37,867 nucleotides of DNA from an uncultured Bacilli bacterium (GTDB taxonomy: Bacteria; Bacillota_I; Bacilli_A; RF39; UBA660): NCBI GenBank assembly GCA_947630195.1, contig CANRGQ010000002.1:1-37867 (forward strand), in the 5' to 3' direction. The notes beneath the pieces were generated by a model. The model saw only the letters and a list, made by a program, of their open reading frames with translations, was not told the origin of the DNA and did not search any database. Shown in pieces: positions 10,459 through 28,885 of the stretch. The position numbers and the translations under genes are program-made. The number at the start of each line of letters is the position of its first letter. The first letter of the stretch is position 1.

Positions 10459-11481
10459 TCATTTTTTTAATAATTTATAAGACATACTTCCTAATTTATC
10501 ATCACATTTATTTTGCATACTGCCATTATAAGTATTTTCTATTTCTCCTTCCGGCGTAAAATAGTATATTTGACAAGTAAGCATATCTTTATAAACCCGA
10601 ATCGGAAGAGTTGTTCTTATTCCTAAATGAAAGTATCCTTTATAACCAATTGAGCCCATTCCTCCCGAACAATGCACGTGATACCCAAGTCTACCTAAAG
10701 AACTTCTTCCACTAATCATGGGAATTAAATTATTAGTTTCGGTCCACTCATTAGTTCTTCCTAAATAAGTTTTATCGGGATACAAAATAGTTCCTTCTTC
10801 GCCAATATTAAAATATTCTACTTTATTCTCTTTTTTGATATCTAAAATGGGATCTGTATAATAACCCATCTTCGGATTTAAACTTAAATTAACGGAATTA
10901 GGATTAATTAATATTTTATTACCCGGATTAATAATGATATCACCCGTAGTCATTCTTTTCTTTATTTCATCACCACTAAGCATGCCAATTTCTTGGCTAG
11001 TCTCATCTAAACTTTTAAAAAATGTTAGATTACCCACTTCAATATTGGGATAAATTATTGTGGGTTTCGTACAAATTATACTAAGTAAAAATGGTCCATC
11101 ATAATTATCCGTACCATAACCACTCGTAAGTTCAATACTAAGTCCTAGCAAGGATAAAGAAGTTCTTCCATGCATAACCGGAATATAACCTTTAGTTTTA
11201 ATATTCTCATTAGTCTTAGCTAAATAAACTTTATGAGGCTCTAAAAGCATACCACTCTTAGGTATTCTTGTTTTTCTTAATTTATTAATAACACCTTTAA
11301 ATACTTCTTCTTGGTATTCATAACTTTCTTTAGTATCTACCACCATATAATCATAAAAATATAATTCATCACTTAAGGTAATGCGACAACTATTGGGTTT
11401 ATCTAAAGCATTATCTAGCATATTATCTATTTGAACATTTCCTAAATCTATTTGTTTTTTTATTTCTTTATTTGTGAGCAT
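10459..11481 (-). CDS. tandem (two-module) dCTP deaminase/dUTPase-fold protein
   Basis: There are two internal repeats. Each begins L(T/S)xxEIKK and contains a Dcd-like core: HGRTSLSLLG...LLSIIC in the first and SGRSSLGRLG...HLGIRT in the second. The canonical catalytic Glu of the Dcd 'LE' motif is replaced in both modules. Confidence 0.7.
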   Translation of the reverse strand: MLTNKEIKKQIDLGNVQIDNMLDNALDKPNSCRITLSDELYFYDYMVVDTKESYEYQEEVFKGVINKLRKTRIPKSGMLLEPHKVYLAKTNENIKTKGYIPVMHGRTSLSLLGLSIELTSGYGTDNYDGPFLLSIICTKPTIIYPNIEVGNLTFFKSLDETSQEIGMLSGDEIKKRMTTGDIIINPGNKILINPNSVNLSLNPKMGYYTDPILDIKKENKVEYFNIGEEGTILYPDKTYLGRTNEWTETNNLIPMISGRSSLGRLGYHVHCSGGMGSIGYKGYFHLGIRTTLPIRVYKDMLTCQIYYFTPEGEIENTYNGSMQNKCDDKLGSMSYKLLKK

Positions 11482-21625: not shown

Positions 21626-22570
21626 TTATTTTATTTCTATCTGCCACTTTGGTGGATACACATAATCTATTTTATCATCTTTTGGTATATATTTCTTTTT
21701 AATTTTAACGCGATTAGACTTTAAATCCGGTAACTTTACTCGACAATATTTATCTAGTTCACAAAAAATATTTTGGCAATCGATAAGTTCTAAAGGACGA
21801 TTTCCGATTCTTTTAAAATCAAGTCCTAATCTTTTAAATTCTTGCTCTTGATTTTCATACATATAACGAATAATATCCTCATAACTTAAACCATCTCTAT
21901 CTATAAAACACTTTCTTATTCCTCTTATAGAACCAGGACCCGCAATGGTAAATTCATCTTCTCTAAAGTCTACTACTTCACTATAGTTAATATCAGTTAC
22001 TAATTGATAAGCCATAAAATTACCTATTAAAGGATAACTTCTTAAGATATTAAAAGCCTCTTCCATACTTTTACTTTTAATTATTTTATCTTGCACTAAA
22101 TCTTCCAAAAACATTTTATGAAGTAAGGCTAAATGATTATCGTGTTTATAGTCATAACCAAAGGCTTTAGTGGCACAACTAATGTAGGCATCATTATATA
22201 GTTTTATTCCTTCATTTTTAGCCTTAGTTAAAACTTTAGAATATTCTTCCATATTAAAACCTTCTAAAGTTATATCTTTAAAATTATTTATTAATAATTC
22301 CCAAGTACTTTCTTTATTAAATAATTTAAATAAAATAATCCGAAATAACATATCTTCTTTTGAATATTTCTTCCCATTATAAATAACATTTTTAAGAAGA
22401 TATTGACTAACCCGGTCATTAACCCTGTAACTATTACAAAATTTGTATTCTCTTAAAATGGGGTCATCGGTCCAAGGGGACGCCTCACCTTTTAATTTCT
22501 TCCAAAAGATATTTTGTCTTTCCCAAGCAAAATACCAATATAAATTGTAAACTTCCTCTCTTACTTTCAT
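21626..22570 (-). CDS. protein resembling the helical domain of 5-hmdU DNA kinase / aGPT-pyrophosphorylase-type base-hypermodification enzymes (no P-loop)
   Basis: The N-terminal pattern is W..ERQNIFWKKL.G..SPWTDDPILREYKFCNSYRVNDRVSQYL, with FMAYQLVTDINYS later. I recall both from 'nucleotide kinase domain'/HMUDK-helical family proteins. No GxxxxGK[ST] motif is present. This assignment is from memory only. Confidence 0.4.
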   Translation of the reverse strand: MKVREEVYNLYWYFAWERQNIFWKKLKGEASPWTDDPILREYKFCNSYRVNDRVSQYLLKNVIYNGKKYSKEDMLFRIILFKLFNKESTWELLINNFKDITLEGFNMEEYSKVLTKAKNEGIKLYNDAYISCATKAFGYDYKHDNHLALLHKMFLEDLVQDKIIKSKSMEEAFNILRSYPLIGNFMAYQLVTDINYSEVVDFREDEFTIAGPGSIRGIRKCFIDRDGLSYEDIIRYMYENQEQEFKRLGLDFKRIGNRPLELIDCQNIFCELDKYCRVKLPDLKSNRVKIKKKYIPKDDKIDYVYPPKWQIEIK

Positions 22571-22571
22571 T

Positions 22572-23558
22572 TTACCTCATACACTTTGGGTCTTTTTCCC
22601 TTAATATTCTTTTAAATGATTTATCACTACTTGCTATAATTTTTTGCCCTAAACAACCACTTTTACAAATGTCATAATTTTCACATCCACTGCAACTAGA
22701 CTCCTTTTGAATCTCTCTTAAATTTTTAAAATAAGAAGAATTATATAGTTCTAATAAACTATTATCTTTAATGTTACCACTTACTCCTAAAACATGAAAA
22801 TATTTAACCGAATCACAAGGATAAGCTACCCCATCAAAGCCAATAATCATTATTTCATCCCCAATAACACAAGGACTATTTTGGATACCTAAAATATTCC
22901 AAGGTGAACCTAGTCTTATTTTATCTTGAAATAAACTATTTAAGTAAAATTTCTTTAACTCTAAAAGTTCTTTCTTACTTAAATCCATATCAATAGTGCC
23001 TTTTTCATGGGGAACAAATCTTAAAATACTAACCTTTTCAAAATAAGGTTTATCTTTAAAAGTGTCTATTGTATAATTTATAACTCTTGCAAAATTCTTA
23101 AAAGAATCTTTGCTTAAGGCATAATGAAAACCTAACTCTCCCTTATTATCTTTAAAAACTTTATCAAAAAATTCTTCATTAGTATATTCTGATAAGTCAT
23201 CTTCTAAAGAAAGAGTATCCGCTAGAGAATAAATAATTTTATCTAAACCAGAATTTATTAAATGTCTATATTTTCTTAGATTTTCTTTAGTTTTATAAGC
23301 AAAAGTATAAATGGTTGTTTTTAAATCTAAACCACTTGCTAAACTTATAAGCAAATCTAAATTTTTATACATTAAAGGTTCGCCACCGGTAAAAACAATA
23401 CTTTGGGCACCCATTTCTTTGGCTTCTAAAATAATTCTAGCGACATCATCAAAAGAAAGTTCCTCTAGGTATTTTTTATCATTCGTTGCTCTACTAGAAC
23501 AATGAAGGCAATTACGCATACATCTGTTAGTTAATTCAATTTTGACTTCCTTTAACAT
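22572..23558 (-). CDS. radical SAM enzyme with C-terminal SPASM/twitch-type auxiliary cluster domain
   Basis: It has C13-x3-C17-x2-C20 (CMRNCLHC), an FTGGEPL SAM-binding motif, and the C-terminal cluster PCD...CSGCENYDICKSGCLG. A GGGAGGG RBS precedes the start. Confidence 0.85.
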   Translation of the reverse strand: MLKEVKIELTNRCMRNCLHCSSRATNDKKYLEELSFDDVARIILEAKEMGAQSIVFTGGEPLMYKNLDLLISLASGLDLKTTIYTFAYKTKENLRKYRHLINSGLDKIIYSLADTLSLEDDLSEYTNEEFFDKVFKDNKGELGFHYALSKDSFKNFARVINYTIDTFKDKPYFEKVSILRFVPHEKGTIDMDLSKKELLELKKFYLNSLFQDKIRLGSPWNILGIQNSPCVIGDEIMIIGFDGVAYPCDSVKYFHVLGVSGNIKDNSLLELYNSSYFKNLREIQKESSCSGCENYDICKSGCLGQKIIASSDKSFKRILREKDPKCMR

Positions 23559-25448: not shown

Positions 25449-26595
25449 TTATTCTACATTGATTATAAATGGATCACTTTCAGTTCCTCCACCTGATAGT
25501 TTAACCTCGGATGTTAGATAGAAGACTGGGCGAACCGCATACTTTAGGGTCCCAAAGCCATTCGAACTGTCTAAGAGTCCCCCCAAGCGGTCGCTCGAAT
25601 TGGTCACAAGCCACTCATAGTAAGAGCTGCCGAAGTACTTCTGGCCATACCTAGTCATGGTCCATTCGTTACTATAACTATATGTTGAACTACTACTTAA
25701 TCCATGTGTTATATGTAACCAACTATTAGTATTTTTTGCATATGTCCATGAATTGTAATAATCTCCCGCATACATTAATCCTACTCGATATTTTCCACTT
25801 GTTTTTGGCTTTGCTTCTACTCCACTTGATGTTGCGTTTGTTCTATCTCCTTTCCACCAATTTACTTCTGCTATATATGGTTTTATTCTTGCATCTATTG
25901 TACTTCCTGTATAAAATGTACTATTTAAGTATGTTCTCACTGTATTACTTCCATTATCCCAATCTATATTTGAAAATTGATCTGTCGACCATGCTTGACT
26001 TGTATTTGATGGTGTGGCCTTTATTACTTTTAACATTCCTGCTTTTAATCCTAGTGTACTTTCTTCTTTTCCGTCGGTTACTCCGATTATGCGATACATA
26101 TTATCAGTATTTGTTTTACATACATCTGGATTTTCATCTCCTAGGCATATGTAATTATTTGTTACTTCTTCATATGTTCCTTTATATCTATATAATCCGT
26201 CTACTACTGTTGTATGGTCTCCTCCTCCCGCAAATGTATCTCCCCCTGTTTCTTTTAACATATCTAATACTGGTTTGGACTCTTGTTTAACAAAGTTTCC
26301 AACTTTACCTGTAAATATTGGAACTGCTCCAGAATCATAACTATAATAAGCATGGGTATTTTTAATTACCACATTAATTAATACCATAACAAAAACCACT
26401 AATACAGATATTCCTAATATTAGTTCTCCTTTAGTTAGTTTTTCTTTTATATTATTAAGTTTATCTTTTAAATTATTAGGTATGAATGCTAAAGATATTA
26501 GGGTGTTACAATAACCCCCCCCCGATTTGGGTATTTAAAACTACTAATGCAATTATTGCTACATATAAAACTATTCTTTTAATTTTTTTCTTCAT
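25449..26595 (-). pseudogene. secreted/surface protein gene interrupted by a frameshift at a G9 tract (phase-variable or OFF-state gene)
   Basis: Promoter TTGACT-17-TATTAT, RBS AAAGAGGT and the ATG at 26595 open a 24-codon signal-like ORF. It enters G9 (26515-26523) and stops 3 codons later. The -1 frame is open from the tract into the 316-aa ORF. The C-terminal domain ends with a W...AVRPVFYL motif. Confidence 0.65.
26515..26523 (-). repeat. homopolymeric G9 (C9 on the plus strand) tract inside the coding sequence
   Basis: Counted directly: 26515-26523 are all C on the plus strand. This is the only G/C run of this length that I noticed in the window. Confidence 0.95.
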
Positions 26596-26705
26596 ATACA
26601 TACCTCTTTTATATTATTAATTATTTATCTTCTTTTTATACTAATGTTGTAAATACCGAATGTTAATTACAAAATAAAAATAATATTCTTCTACCTTACA
26701 TTTAA

Positions 26706-26734
26706 ATAATATCTCAAAATATGCCACAAGTCAA
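26706..26734 (-). promoter_or_regulatory. sigma-A promoter (TTGACT-17-TATTAT) of the G9-tract gene
   Basis: Read directly on the minus strand: -35 at 26729-26734 and -10 at 26706-26711. Confidence 0.6.
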
Positions 26735-26768
26735 TATCTCATAGAGTAAATTTTAAAAATATAACATT

Positions 26769-26795
26769 AAAAAAAGAATGAAATCTCTTTCACTC
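26769..26795 (-). terminator. rho-independent terminator after the 690-aa membrane protein gene
   Basis: GAGUGAAA-GAGA-UUUCAUUC (8 bp including one G.U pair) is followed by U7 on the minus strand. Confidence 0.75.
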
Positions 26796-26812
26796 AATTT
26801 ATTAAATTTTAA

Positions 26813-28885
26813 TTATAACCAAAACATAAATAAATAATACATCTTATAGTATATTAGATTAATTAAACTATTATTGAATGATTCTTTATCTAAGAAGATG
26901 GTAAAGAAATTAAAGATTAAACTAATCACAATAAAGGTAACAATTAATTTTTTATAATCTATTTTGAAATTTCTACTATTAACTAGAGATAAGATAACAA
27001 TTATGGTACTCAAGGATATTAACCAACCAAAGTCCGATAAATATCTTGGTAAAATCCCCGCCATTTGGGTATCCGCTAAAACAACAAGTAAGGCACTTAT
27101 AATTAAAGTTAAACAAATATTATATAATACTTTATTATTAATAACTTTCTTAAATTTGAAAAAGCATAACCCAAGCAAAGTAATTAAATTAATAAAGAAG
27201 AATCCCCCATACATATCCTCGAATATTGTTACTCCCACATAAGAAGTTAAAACCTCATCACTCATGACAAATGGGAATACTAAAGATATTCTTCCTGGGG
27301 CAAATAAGAAATAATATAATCCTAAGAATATTCTATCAAATCTAAATCCTCTTTTAGTCATATCATTAGTGGTTAAATTATAATTAGCTCCAAAATCAAA
27401 GATACTTCCAAACCTCGCATAATTATAATACATGATAAATAAAGCCACAATGACAAAAGGAAGACATAAACATAAAGTTTCTTTTAGACTACTTTTCGAA
27501 AATAATTCTCTTTTTTTAAAGACATAATCCCAGAATATTGGTAGTCCTAAGAAAGACCCAACGAGTAACTGTGGACGACAACCCGCTACCAAAGCCATAC
27601 ATAAACTACCTAAAGCTAAATATTTTTTATTTAATTTTTTATCATTGGTACTTTTAAACCAAAAAGACAGTCCTAAATAAGAAAAACTTAACCCAAAAAT
27701 AATTGGCAAATTATAGAATGTTGGTTCCGCACTAAAAACAAATAATCCCGATGTCACCAGTAAAAATAAACTTAGTAACTGATACCAAATAAAACTTGTT
27801 TTCGGAAAGTATTTTTTAATTAACGTATACATAAATTTATAAACCGCAATTAGTAAGAATATTAAAGAAATAGACATCGCTATATAATTAGGTAAATCAC
27901 TATGGGTAATTAATCTAAATGGTAAATAAATAAGTAGACATGGAATAATCCCAAAATAAGAATAATATTTTTGATTATAATAAGCATAATCCCAATAATA
28001 ATCTTTATAAGGTTTTAAATAATTATCTCGATAACTTATATCATAAGGATTTTCTAATTCTTTTAATTTATCACTTACTTTTAAATCTAAATAAAAGTGT
28101 CCTTTACTTAAAGCTTTAGCTAAATTTTTATATTGCGAATATTGACTAGTTTCGTTATCATTATAGCTTTTAGCGCACAACAATGTATTCGAACATAACA
28201 CTAAACCTAAGATACTTATAATAACCACTGTTATTACTTTAACCTTTTTAAAATCAAATTTTAATTCATATAAAATACTTTTTGGATTAATAATAAAAAT
28301 TAATAAACTAAAAATAAAGGTTAATAATAATCTTAAATTATTAATAAACATTGGTACTTCTTTATTTATTTTAATTTCATTAATGGTAAAGTTATTATTA
28401 TCCTCTAGAATAGTTAATCTTAAAACTTCACTCTTACCAGAAGTATGCATTCTTATATAATGGCTTTCTTCGATATTATTAACATAATATCTACTACCAC
28501 CATAAGCATAAAGTTTATTGGCTTCATCCGTAAAATCAATCTTATATTTTAAATATAAGTTATCCTTACTTTGAATATCTAAATATAAATTATGAATCTT
28601 TCTATCAATATTAAATATTTCAATATAAGCATTCTCTTTATCCGTAACATGACAAACACTATCACAAGTAATTCCAAATAAATTATAACTTACAAGTTCT
28701 TTCTCATCTTTAAAAATTAAAGACTCATAATGCCGATAATTAAATATAGTAACTTCTAATAATGAAGATATAATTAAAGAATATATTACATAACGAAAAA
28801 AAGTCTTTAAATATTTATTCTTATAAACATTAAATCTATCTAAAAATATTAAAATAATTATTCCAATAATAAAAACTAGTAACAT
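26813..28885 (-). CDS. large polytopic membrane protein, possibly a GT-C-fold (ArnT/PMT-like) glycosyltransferase with an inserted extracytoplasmic domain
   Basis: The 690-aa product has 12 or more hydrophobic helices. A soluble insert of about 130 aa follows TM2. The loop ENPYDISYRDNYL...YWDYAYYNQKYYSYFG is reminiscent of carrier-lipid-dependent glycosyltransferases. The family call is tentative. Confidence 0.4.
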   Translation of the reverse strand: MLLVFIIGIIILIFLDRFNVYKNKYLKTFFRYVIYSLIISSLLEVTIFNYRHYESLIFKDEKELVSYNLFGITCDSVCHVTDKENAYIEIFNIDRKIHNLYLDIQSKDNLYLKYKIDFTDEANKLYAYGGSRYYVNNIEESHYIRMHTSGKSEVLRLTILEDNNNFTINEIKINKEVPMFINNLRLLLTFIFSLLIFIINPKSILYELKFDFKKVKVITVVIISILGLVLCSNTLLCAKSYNDNETSQYSQYKNLAKALSKGHFYLDLKVSDKLKELENPYDISYRDNYLKPYKDYYWDYAYYNQKYYSYFGIIPCLLIYLPFRLITHSDLPNYIAMSISLIFLLIAVYKFMYTLIKKYFPKTSFIWYQLLSLFLLVTSGLFVFSAEPTFYNLPIIFGLSFSYLGLSFWFKSTNDKKLNKKYLALGSLCMALVAGCRPQLLVGSFLGLPIFWDYVFKKRELFSKSSLKETLCLCLPFVIVALFIMYYNYARFGSIFDFGANYNLTTNDMTKRGFRFDRIFLGLYYFLFAPGRISLVFPFVMSDEVLTSYVGVTIFEDMYGGFFFINLITLLGLCFFKFKKVINNKVLYNICLTLIISALLVVLADTQMAGILPRYLSDFGWLISLSTIIVILSLVNSRNFKIDYKKLIVTFIVISLIFNFFTIFLDKESFNNSLINLIYYKMYYLFMFWL

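Follow-up and report, generated by a model that had tools for sequence, protein, structure and literature searches.

A nine-guanine tract in a portable leader as a probable phase-variation switch of DUF6273 lectin-like proteins in uncultured gut Bacilli

Homopolymer contingency loci are textbook matter in Campylobacter, Helicobacter, Haemophilus, Neisseria and the mycoplasmas. In the opa family of Neisseria, 11-12 paralogues carry CTCTT repeats where the leader peptide is encoded; they have their own promoters and switch frame independently, and recombination between the paralogues reshuffles their variable parts. Another short G-rich run is found in prfB, the gene for release factor 2 (RF2), whose +1 frameshift cassette reads AGGGGG-UAU-CUU-UGA-C. 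In Campylobacter jejuni contingency loci, the majority of tracts are OFF and the modal polyG length is nine, a length that has been attributed to a length-dependent bias between insertions and deletions (PMC3401435). Our literature search found nothing comparable for uncultured low-GC gut Bacilli. Here we analyse a tract of nine consecutive G on the minus strand of contig CANRGQ010000002.1 (assembly GCA_947630195.1), from an uncultured Bacilli bacterium. The window, that is, the whole stretch analysed, is one entire contig of 37,867 bp with a GC content of 27.9%, and it is chromosomal, carrying UvrA, UvrB, ProRS and thioredoxin-reductase-like genes. We consider it probable (roughly 70%) that this tract, hereafter G9, acts as the hypermutable part of a phase-variation switch of the slipped-strand (simple-sequence-repeat) type, which is OFF in the window. 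The switch would act on a gene, hereafter the cargo, that encodes a lectin-like protein of the DUF6273 family. Two open reading frames (ORFs) meet at the tract, and the parts of the locus, from the promoter side onwards, are the following (UTR, untranslated region; RBS, ribosome-binding site).

26706..26734, minus strand: sigma-70-type promoter-like site, TTGACT-17 nt-TATTAT, matching at 10/12 positions
26645..26661, minus strand: motif ATTCGGTATTTACAACA in the 5′ UTR, a putative element, nearly invariant across all module copies (window, L005-L023)
26602..26609, minus strand: Shine-Dalgarno sequence AAAGAGGT, 7 nt upstream of the ATG at 26595-26593, conserved in paralogues
26506..26595, minus strand: leader ORF1, 29 codons plus TAA, MKKKIKRIVLYVAIIALVVLNTQIGGGLL, the product of the G9 (OFF) state, matched by an equal 29-aa ORF called in the orthologue
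26515..26523, minus strand: the G9 homopolymer, slippage-prone tract and frame switch, from direct count and a census of homologous modules
26479..26514, minus strand: post-tract block TTATTGTAACACCCTAATATCTTTAGCATTCATACC, which carries the 0-frame stop and whose downstream frame encodes YCNTLISLAFIP, conserved among copies
26400..26522, minus strand: start-less 5′ part of ORF2, in the +1 frame relative to ORF1, comprising a K-rich n-region and the onset of a hydrophobic segment, stop-free and with no usable start
26364..26423, minus strand: hydrophobic segment LILGISVLVVFVMVLINVVI followed by KNTHAYY, the putative native signal peptide or signal anchor of the cargo, a pattern seen in ~80 relatives
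25449..26399, minus strand: annotated 316-aa ORF, the DUF6273-family lectin-like cargo, from family, model and PDB evidence
25518..25667, minus strand: hypervariable GC-rich (51%), A-poor segment rich in NNC codons, between EWTMTR and AVRPVFY, from composition and a break of the orthologue alignment

ORF1 runs from the ATG at 26595 through 24 codons (MKKKIKRIVLYVAIIALVVLNTQI), the nine G, TTA and TTG to the TAA at 26508-26506, and an additional ATG at 26601 directly abuts the RBS. A 5′ UTR of ~95 nt separates the promoter-like site from the RBS, and TTGACT with the adjoining TATTATTTAAATGTAAGGTA block is kept in most paralogous modules. The gene caller's own cargo product (P0001) is a 312-aa protein that starts from the ATG at 26387. 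When the tract is edited in silico, 8 G give a protein of 381 aa and 11 G one of 382 aa, while 7, 9, 10 or 12 G give 29-32 aa; on paper, a change in the length of this repeat (nine units, where ~7 or more are expected of a hypermutable homopolymer, inside the leader coding region) thus toggles between a full-length and a truncated product.

In the switch as we picture it, a portable cassette made of the promoter, the conserved 5′ UTR, the strong RBS, the ATG, a hydrophobic leader of ~24 codons, the G-tract and ~36 conserved nt would have been placed before many paralogous secreted-protein genes of the lineage, and those genes would have lost their own start codons. In the OFF state (9 G), ribosomes starting at the ATG at 26595 would terminate at the TAA at 26506 after 29 codons, and the cargo, lacking its own start codon and RBS, would not be made. 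The loss of one G (G8) or the gain of two (G11) at replication would fuse leader and cargo, which would then be exported through its own signal segment. If each genome has some ten or more of these genes and each one switches on its own, the set of lectin-like proteins secreted or shown at the surface would keep changing within the population. We infer that slippage during replication changes the tract length often and in a reversible way; that the product is exported and processed, and what its ecological role would be, is read from the sequences in the same indirect way.

Such a locus resembles the polyG/polyC loci of C. jejuni (cj1139 and cj0031; capsule, lipooligosaccharide and flagellar modification) in its low GC content, its intragenic G tract with a modal length of nine, the toggling of frame by one repeat and the many loci per genome, most of them OFF. 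The C. jejuni tracts, however, lie inside unrelated native ORFs, mostly for enzymes modifying surface glycans, whereas one identical cassette is used here across a family of paralogous secreted proteins. The present host also differs, belonging to an uncultured Gram-positive-type gut Bacilli lineage known here from consensus assemblies. With opa it shares the multigene family and the repeat in the signal or leader coding region of each paralogue. It differs in that the opa repeat is a pentamer inside a native signal peptide, with an outer-membrane beta-barrel as product, whereas here a homopolymer lies in an additional leader, a second and complete signal-like segment follows downstream, and DUF6273 proteins are the cargo.

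Evidence that the sequence behind the tract is coding comes from the window and from a syntenic locus in the metagenome-assembled genome (MAG) "uncultured Bacilli bacterium Lapin-002__bin32" (L004, the same as L005; L and P numbers denote related loci and proteins), which is 93-94.5% identical over ~21 kb. The window frame is free of stops for 39 codons from the tract to the GTG at 26399 (p ~0.018 at local composition). In the orthologue the 29-aa ORF recurs with an unchanged stop and exactly nine G, and the frame downstream contains an in-frame 3-nt indel relative to the window. This frame runs for 86 codons without a stop or any ATG, GTG or TTG (p ~3.5e-4), these starts being absent until past the hydrophobic segment. 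This long start-less open frame, together with the in-frame indel, indicates that the sequence behind the tract is maintained as coding, and as ORF2 lacks a start of its own, translation would enter it solely from the upstream ATG after a change of frame.

The tract itself is the sole G/C run of at least 7 nt in the window. Two overlapping G8 matches are present where 0.15 are expected, and only 3 of 100 dinucleotide-preserving shuffles reach two. The 163 kb of related DNA contain 16 G/C runs of at least 7 nt against 0.29 expected (~56-fold), and all 16 are the module tract. A/T runs of at least 9 nt are absent from the window and related loci (163 kb), where 22 +/- 4 are expected at 72% AT, and those of at least 8 nt are ~4-fold depleted. 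Long homopolymers appear to be avoided genome-wide, with the G-tract modules as the sole exception. A sequence-only reading of this locus had pointed to the promoter, the RBS, the ATG at 26595, the G9 at 26515-26523 and the stop three codons on, all of which we confirm; it had also held the stop-free stretch and the 9-nt G run to be unlikely by chance, as the figures above bear out.

The cassette recurs well beyond the syntenic locus. A scan with the 21 nt 3′ of the tract, taking one genome per species, returned ten loci, on seven contigs of bin32 and three of Lapin-017__bin11, and altogether the cassette precedes at least 10 paralogues in three related genomes, which are MAGs of uncultured rabbit-gut Bacilli. 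The rabbit ("Lapin") data containing the modules comprise the assemblies ERZ27249050, ERZ27249129, ERZ27249546, ERZ27249555 and ERZ27249588 and two MAGs (GCA_947589435.1 and GCA_947628485.1). The flank pattern was not found in JGI metagenome contigs or IMG/VR. All copies share one layout: the TTGACT promoter-like site, the ATTCGGTATTTACAACA motif, AAAGAGGT, ATG, MKK(E/D)NKNLVLYV...LVVLISSI and the G-tract, followed by TTATTGTAAYACCCTAATATC(W)(K)TAGTATTCATACC, a K-rich stretch, the second hydrophobic segment and (K/D)THAYYN. In 10 of 10 complete copies, an intact ORF of 250-668 codons begins at the tract in the +1 frame. At least two kinds of cargo occur behind the cassette, namely DUF6273-type proteins (357-668 codons) and ~250-aa proteins ending in ...TCYAYF. 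As 21 of the 36 nt of the post-tract block were the search pattern, these are identical by construction in L005-L014; the independently found copies (L015, L018-L023) have just 1-2 differing positions in the block.

A gene of the ...TCYAYF type (~235-270 aa) commonly lies 14 nt upstream of a DUF6273 gene (L001:7465-8178, L002:9256-9987, L016:8281-8988 and L018:749-1561). In L018, L019 and L021 the G-tract leader is on the first gene, and the switch there probably gates a two-gene operon. The 5′ UTR motif ATTCGGTATTTACAACA may serve the family at large as a common operator or RNA element; a search of Rfam over 26300-26850, which includes the motif, gave no match. A related form, ATCGGTAAATGCAACA, is found at L016:5960-5980 before a paralogue without leader and tract. 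We also considered an invertase or shufflon role for the conserved flank and set it aside, all copies having the same orientation relative to their own genes and promoters, with no inverted partner nearby.

Tract lengths could be read in 17 contigs: 13 carry G9 (out of frame), three G8 and one G11 (both in frame). Using a ~250-aa cargo as query, a homology search brought up P0150, a 270-aa protein that opens with the leader and reads straight through (...LISQIGGGYCNTLISLVFIP...), and the corresponding DNA, L018 of Lapin-017__bin11, has a G8 tract. Its 90% cluster also includes P0205 (270 aa; L021 and L022, G8) and P0206 (205 aa, truncated; L020, G9). Similarly, P0219 (278 aa; L019, G11), with the junction ...SSIGGGGYCNT..., clusters with truncated forms such as P0212 (L023, G9). 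The junction peptide that would mark an ON fusion is IGGGYCNTLISLAFIPNNLK, and the fused in-frame proteins P0150, P0205 and P0219 were all called by gene callers. A single MAG, Lapin-017__bin11, holds four G9 copies and one G8 copy. Tract length is thus polymorphic within near-identical flanks, with ON and OFF alleles, between paralogues or possibly recombinant copies. A query with the fused N-terminus (103 aa) against 5.8 billion proteins gave no match, but this is a false negative, as a near-identical 40-residue stretch exists in P0150, P0205 and P0219; negatives of such word-indexed searches are unreliable for short hydrophobic queries. The comparison with related genomes proposed in the sequence-only reading yields G8, G9 and G11 among copies of the module and not a uniform nine. 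Both lengths that it expected to restore the frame exist in near-identical modules (G8 in L018, L021 and L022; G11 in L019), and these ON alleles, with the intact start-less ORF2, support its suggestion of a slipped-strand contingency switch.

Relatives that lack the cassette show where the added part ends. They open with an ATG at the K-rich n-region (MNKEKIKEIFNKQKLKVNKIKEIIKSKEGITLVG...KDTHAYYNS in P0042, MIKEKL...KDTHAYYNY in dozens of others), and the 5′ part of ORF2 is homologous to the N-termini of the ATG-started P0042, P0024, P0046, P0110 and P0122-P0204; the succession of K-rich stretch, hydrophobic segment and (K/D)THAYYN is common to ~80 relatives. At the P0042 locus (bin11), a similar promoter and 5′ UTR are joined directly to the n-region ATG. 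An exhaustive HMMER search with P0150 against 1.84 billion representatives gave 52 homologues; the full-length ones align from query residues ~42-73, near their own N-termini, and the remaining ones are partial matches farther downstream. The sole match to the leader among these representatives is a stand-alone 29-aa ORF, P0273. Because relatives start at the n-region, the native export signal of the cargo would be the second hydrophobic segment (26364-26423). The first hydrophobic N-terminus is, judging from these alignments, an added leader with the evident role of carrying the start codon and the switch, and the ATG-started architecture without cassette is, by the same token, ancestral, the cassette-bearing genes having lost their own starts. 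The sequence-only reading had seen a secreted-protein gene with its signal at the ATG at 26595; a signal-like segment does exist there, but it belongs to the added leader, the real one being that at 26364-26423. No NCBIfam signal-peptide model matched, and the idea of a SipW/TasA-type signal peptide, based on a likeness of THAYYN to GTYAYF, was dropped for that reason. The P0273 leader ORF ends in ...IGGGVL and not in ...IGGGLL, implying a T-to-G change after the tract, and so ten G in the same frame; this is one more variant of the tract unless it is an error of sequencing.

Several observations nonetheless weigh against a switch by simple slippage. Comparisons of the same locus agree in length (window and L004, G9; L015 and L020, G9; L018, L021 and L022, G8), and the three G8 contigs are essentially one strain, L021 and L022 being 100% identical. 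The pairs of ON and OFF alleles with the same cargo (L021 and L020, L019 and L023) could be recombinants or assembly chimeras at the shared module of ~55-60 nt, a chimera-prone repeat of about the assembler k-mer length. Indeed, L020 (G9) and L021 (G8) are 99.94% identical over 1,760 nt downstream of the tract and ~78% upstream of it, where L020 matches L015 in a Ku/LigD context, and L023 (2x coverage) joins a window-like promoter and leader (window 26291-26759) to the L019 cargo. Moreover, 13 of the 17 tracts are exactly G9 and none of the assembled tracts has another OFF length (G7, G10 or G12), which hints at a restoring force toward nine, by mutational bias or by selection on a functional G9. 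Finally, the tract flanks are unusually conserved at the nucleotide level among paralogues, and simple slippage needs no such conservation.

L018 and L021 offer a further detail. All nine differences between these 2.9-kb contigs fall in one 53-nt patch of the ~250-aa cargo gene (L018:1366-1418, L021:1097-1149), which suggests gene conversion.

A programmed +1 recoding site would explain the strict nine. Under this hypothesis, which we find unlikely although it is the most credible of the alternatives, G9 itself is functional and selected: ribosomes shift by +1 at GGG_GGG_GGG_U or UUG_UAA_C, or RNA polymerase slips to give G8 transcripts, so that a G9 template sets a low or regulated expression, and G8 and G11 are secondary, locked-on mutants. 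Hardly any variation occurs in the ATC before the tract or in the ~36 nt that follow the tract, even at synonymous positions, and the site is made of locally rare codons (ATC; GGG, 13% of Gly codons; TTG, 40 against 772 TTA). Nine nt is also the length of the RNA:DNA hybrid, and A9 runs give ~16% slippage in each direction in a Firmicutes insertion sequence (PMC6211511), but transcriptional slippage is documented mainly for A/T runs. The arrangement GGGGGGGGG-UUA-UUG-UAA-C parallels the prfB cassette, with its Shine-Dalgarno-like G-run (the GG_GGG of RF2 is mentioned in PMC5009743), a 3-nt spacer, a Leu codon, a stop and C, and a +1 shift that reaches the long ORF. Unlike in prfB, however, the Leu codon is UUG, whose re-pairing with UGU would be poor, the autoregulatory logic of a release factor is missing and the frameshift is not universal in the family: a disruption in all members is contradicted by the in-frame G8 and G11 alleles and by the many members without a leader. 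These in-frame assembly consensus sequences show variation of the DNA tract itself, and they show that alleles with a restored frame are tolerated or selected in the DNA. The predicted RNA fold around the site is not significant (z = 0.45, no better than shuffles), and in C. jejuni a modal length of nine also results from mutational bias alone (PMC3401435). Twelve copies with G9 throughout, including the independent L015, had favoured programmed recoding at an invariant G9, and the G8 and G11 alleles count against it. A tRNA scan for an unusual tRNA-Gly (quadruplet decoding) gave no tRNA gene at all in the window and related loci. Low-level recoding could coexist with DNA switching, and would then explain both the strict nine and the conserved flanks, but it is not needed for the data. 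A related proposal, which we rate as rather unlikely, is a two-layer expression gate, in which the ~55-60-nt core acts as a recombination joint that swaps cargo behind promoters and leaders, and G9 is kept at nine for basal +1 recoding. L020 would then combine an L015-type leader with the L021 cargo, and L023 a window-type leader with the L019 cargo, and expression would be low from G9 (through the RF2-like geometry or RNA-polymerase slippage) and high from G8 or G11.

Quite improbable, in our opinion, is an arrangement of two cistrons, in which ORF1 would encode a genuine membrane peptide of 29 aa or act as an upstream ORF with a regulatory role, the cargo would be translated from a non-canonical start (such as ATA) or by termination-reinitiation, and the G-run would be Shine-Dalgarno-like or structural. 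It would account for a 29-aa ORF with a strong RBS that is kept in length and hydrophobicity, and in-frame ATA codons are available downstream of the tract in both orthologues, but no Shine-Dalgarno sequence lies at a suitable distance from any near-cognate start, the open frame of ORF2 begins at the tract in all copies, fused in-frame alleles exist, and relatives use a plain ATG at the n-region. As the sequences are short-read metagenome assemblies, some of 2-7x coverage, and homopolymers are error-prone in some chemistries, one may also ask whether the tract length is a sequencing or assembly error, or the gene a frameshifted pseudogene without switching. We hold this to be very improbable indeed: 13 contigs, drawn from several assemblies made independently, share G9 and three share G8, an intact ORF2 is preserved in 10 of 10 copies and between orthologues that are ~94% identical, including the in-frame 3-nt indel, and random damage would not strike the same position in every paralogue. 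A phase-variation switch by slippage in the tract is thus the reading that we retain, at the probability given above.

The cargo of the window is 44-71% identical to a family of ~390-aa proteins. PF19789 (DUF6273) is matched by 14 of 29 aligned family members, the window protein itself remaining below threshold. An AlphaFold2 model of the cargo (pLDDT 84, pTM 0.86) has a single significant match in the PDB, 9qa6, an IgA peptidase of Thomasclavelia ramosa (E = 1.6e-4), and its matches to C-type lectins are non-significant. The N-terminal domain of this secreted peptidase is annotated as DUF6273 (PMC12402451), and the literature presents DUF6273 domains as being C-type-lectin-like and as being targeted by diversity-generating retroelements (DGRs) (PMC10743442). 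We take the product to be a DUF6273 lectin-like protein that is probably secreted or anchored in the membrane, and it may be a surface antigen.

The segment at 25518-25667 reaches 51% GC against 28% for the genome, has 12 A per 60 nt against ~27, is rich in NNC codons and is hypervariable between paralogues as well as orthologues; the alignment with the 93.6%-identical orthologue breaks exactly there. A C-terminal stretch of this kind, bounded here by EWTMTR and AVRPVFY, is also found in the variable proteins of DGRs that carry DUF6273 (phage tentaclins and Faecalibacterium prophage targets). Unlike those targets, the genes described here are chromosomal and not part of a phage tail module, and neither a reverse transcriptase nor a template repeat turned up in the window or ~170 kb of related loci. 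The variable-region-like segments also differ in length among paralogues (111-150 nt), which is not expected from a single template. The search for a template repeat comprised a repeat search of the window, blastn of the segment against the window and of all such segments against the ~170 kb, and found none; a motif scan of the same sequences revealed no reverse-transcriptase-like ORF, and the precomputed Pfam context of neighbouring genes contained no RVT family. On these sequence features, targeting of the segment by a DGR is a lead, not a finding. A second run of G, the G6 at 25579-25584, had been listed in the sequence-only reading as a further feature of the gene; it is present, but it lies inside the hypervariable segment, is not conserved in homologues and is most likely incidental, judging by its position.

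As for the surroundings, a gene for a 690-aa polytopic membrane protein (26813-28885, minus strand) lies immediately upstream of the switch gene and is kept in the orthologous locus. The protein has no Pfam match and a weak NCBIfam similarity to the putative glycosyltransferases LA_3751/LA_3752 (E = 1e-4, far below cutoff). Farther away, at 21626-23558 (minus strand), a protein with a 5-hmdU DNA kinase helical domain (PF18723, E = 1.8e-106) adjoins a radical-SAM/SPASM protein, and ~10 kb from the kinase-domain gene lies one for a two-repeat dCTP-deaminase-like protein (10459-11481, minus strand). These genes are of a kind typical of phage DNA hypermodification; here their surroundings are chromosomal and conserved, with synteny in L004.

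The mechanism proposed here is well known; what is new is the host lineage, the cassette leader before a start-less signal peptide, its use across a whole family and the DUF6273 cargo with a DGR-like tip. A reusable leader cassette of this kind would bring an entire family of secreted DUF6273 lectin-like proteins under on/off control, and each gene of the family is wrongly annotated at present, as a 29-aa orphan ORF and a protein truncated at its N-terminus. Should a DGR also target the hypervariable 3′ segment, the same proteins would be subject both to on/off switching and to hypermutation, and the two-layer gate, if real, would together with the DGR-like hypervariability stack three diversification mechanisms on one lectin-like family of a gut commensal. 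In the rabbit gut, these proteins may bring about variable adhesion or interact with host or phage.

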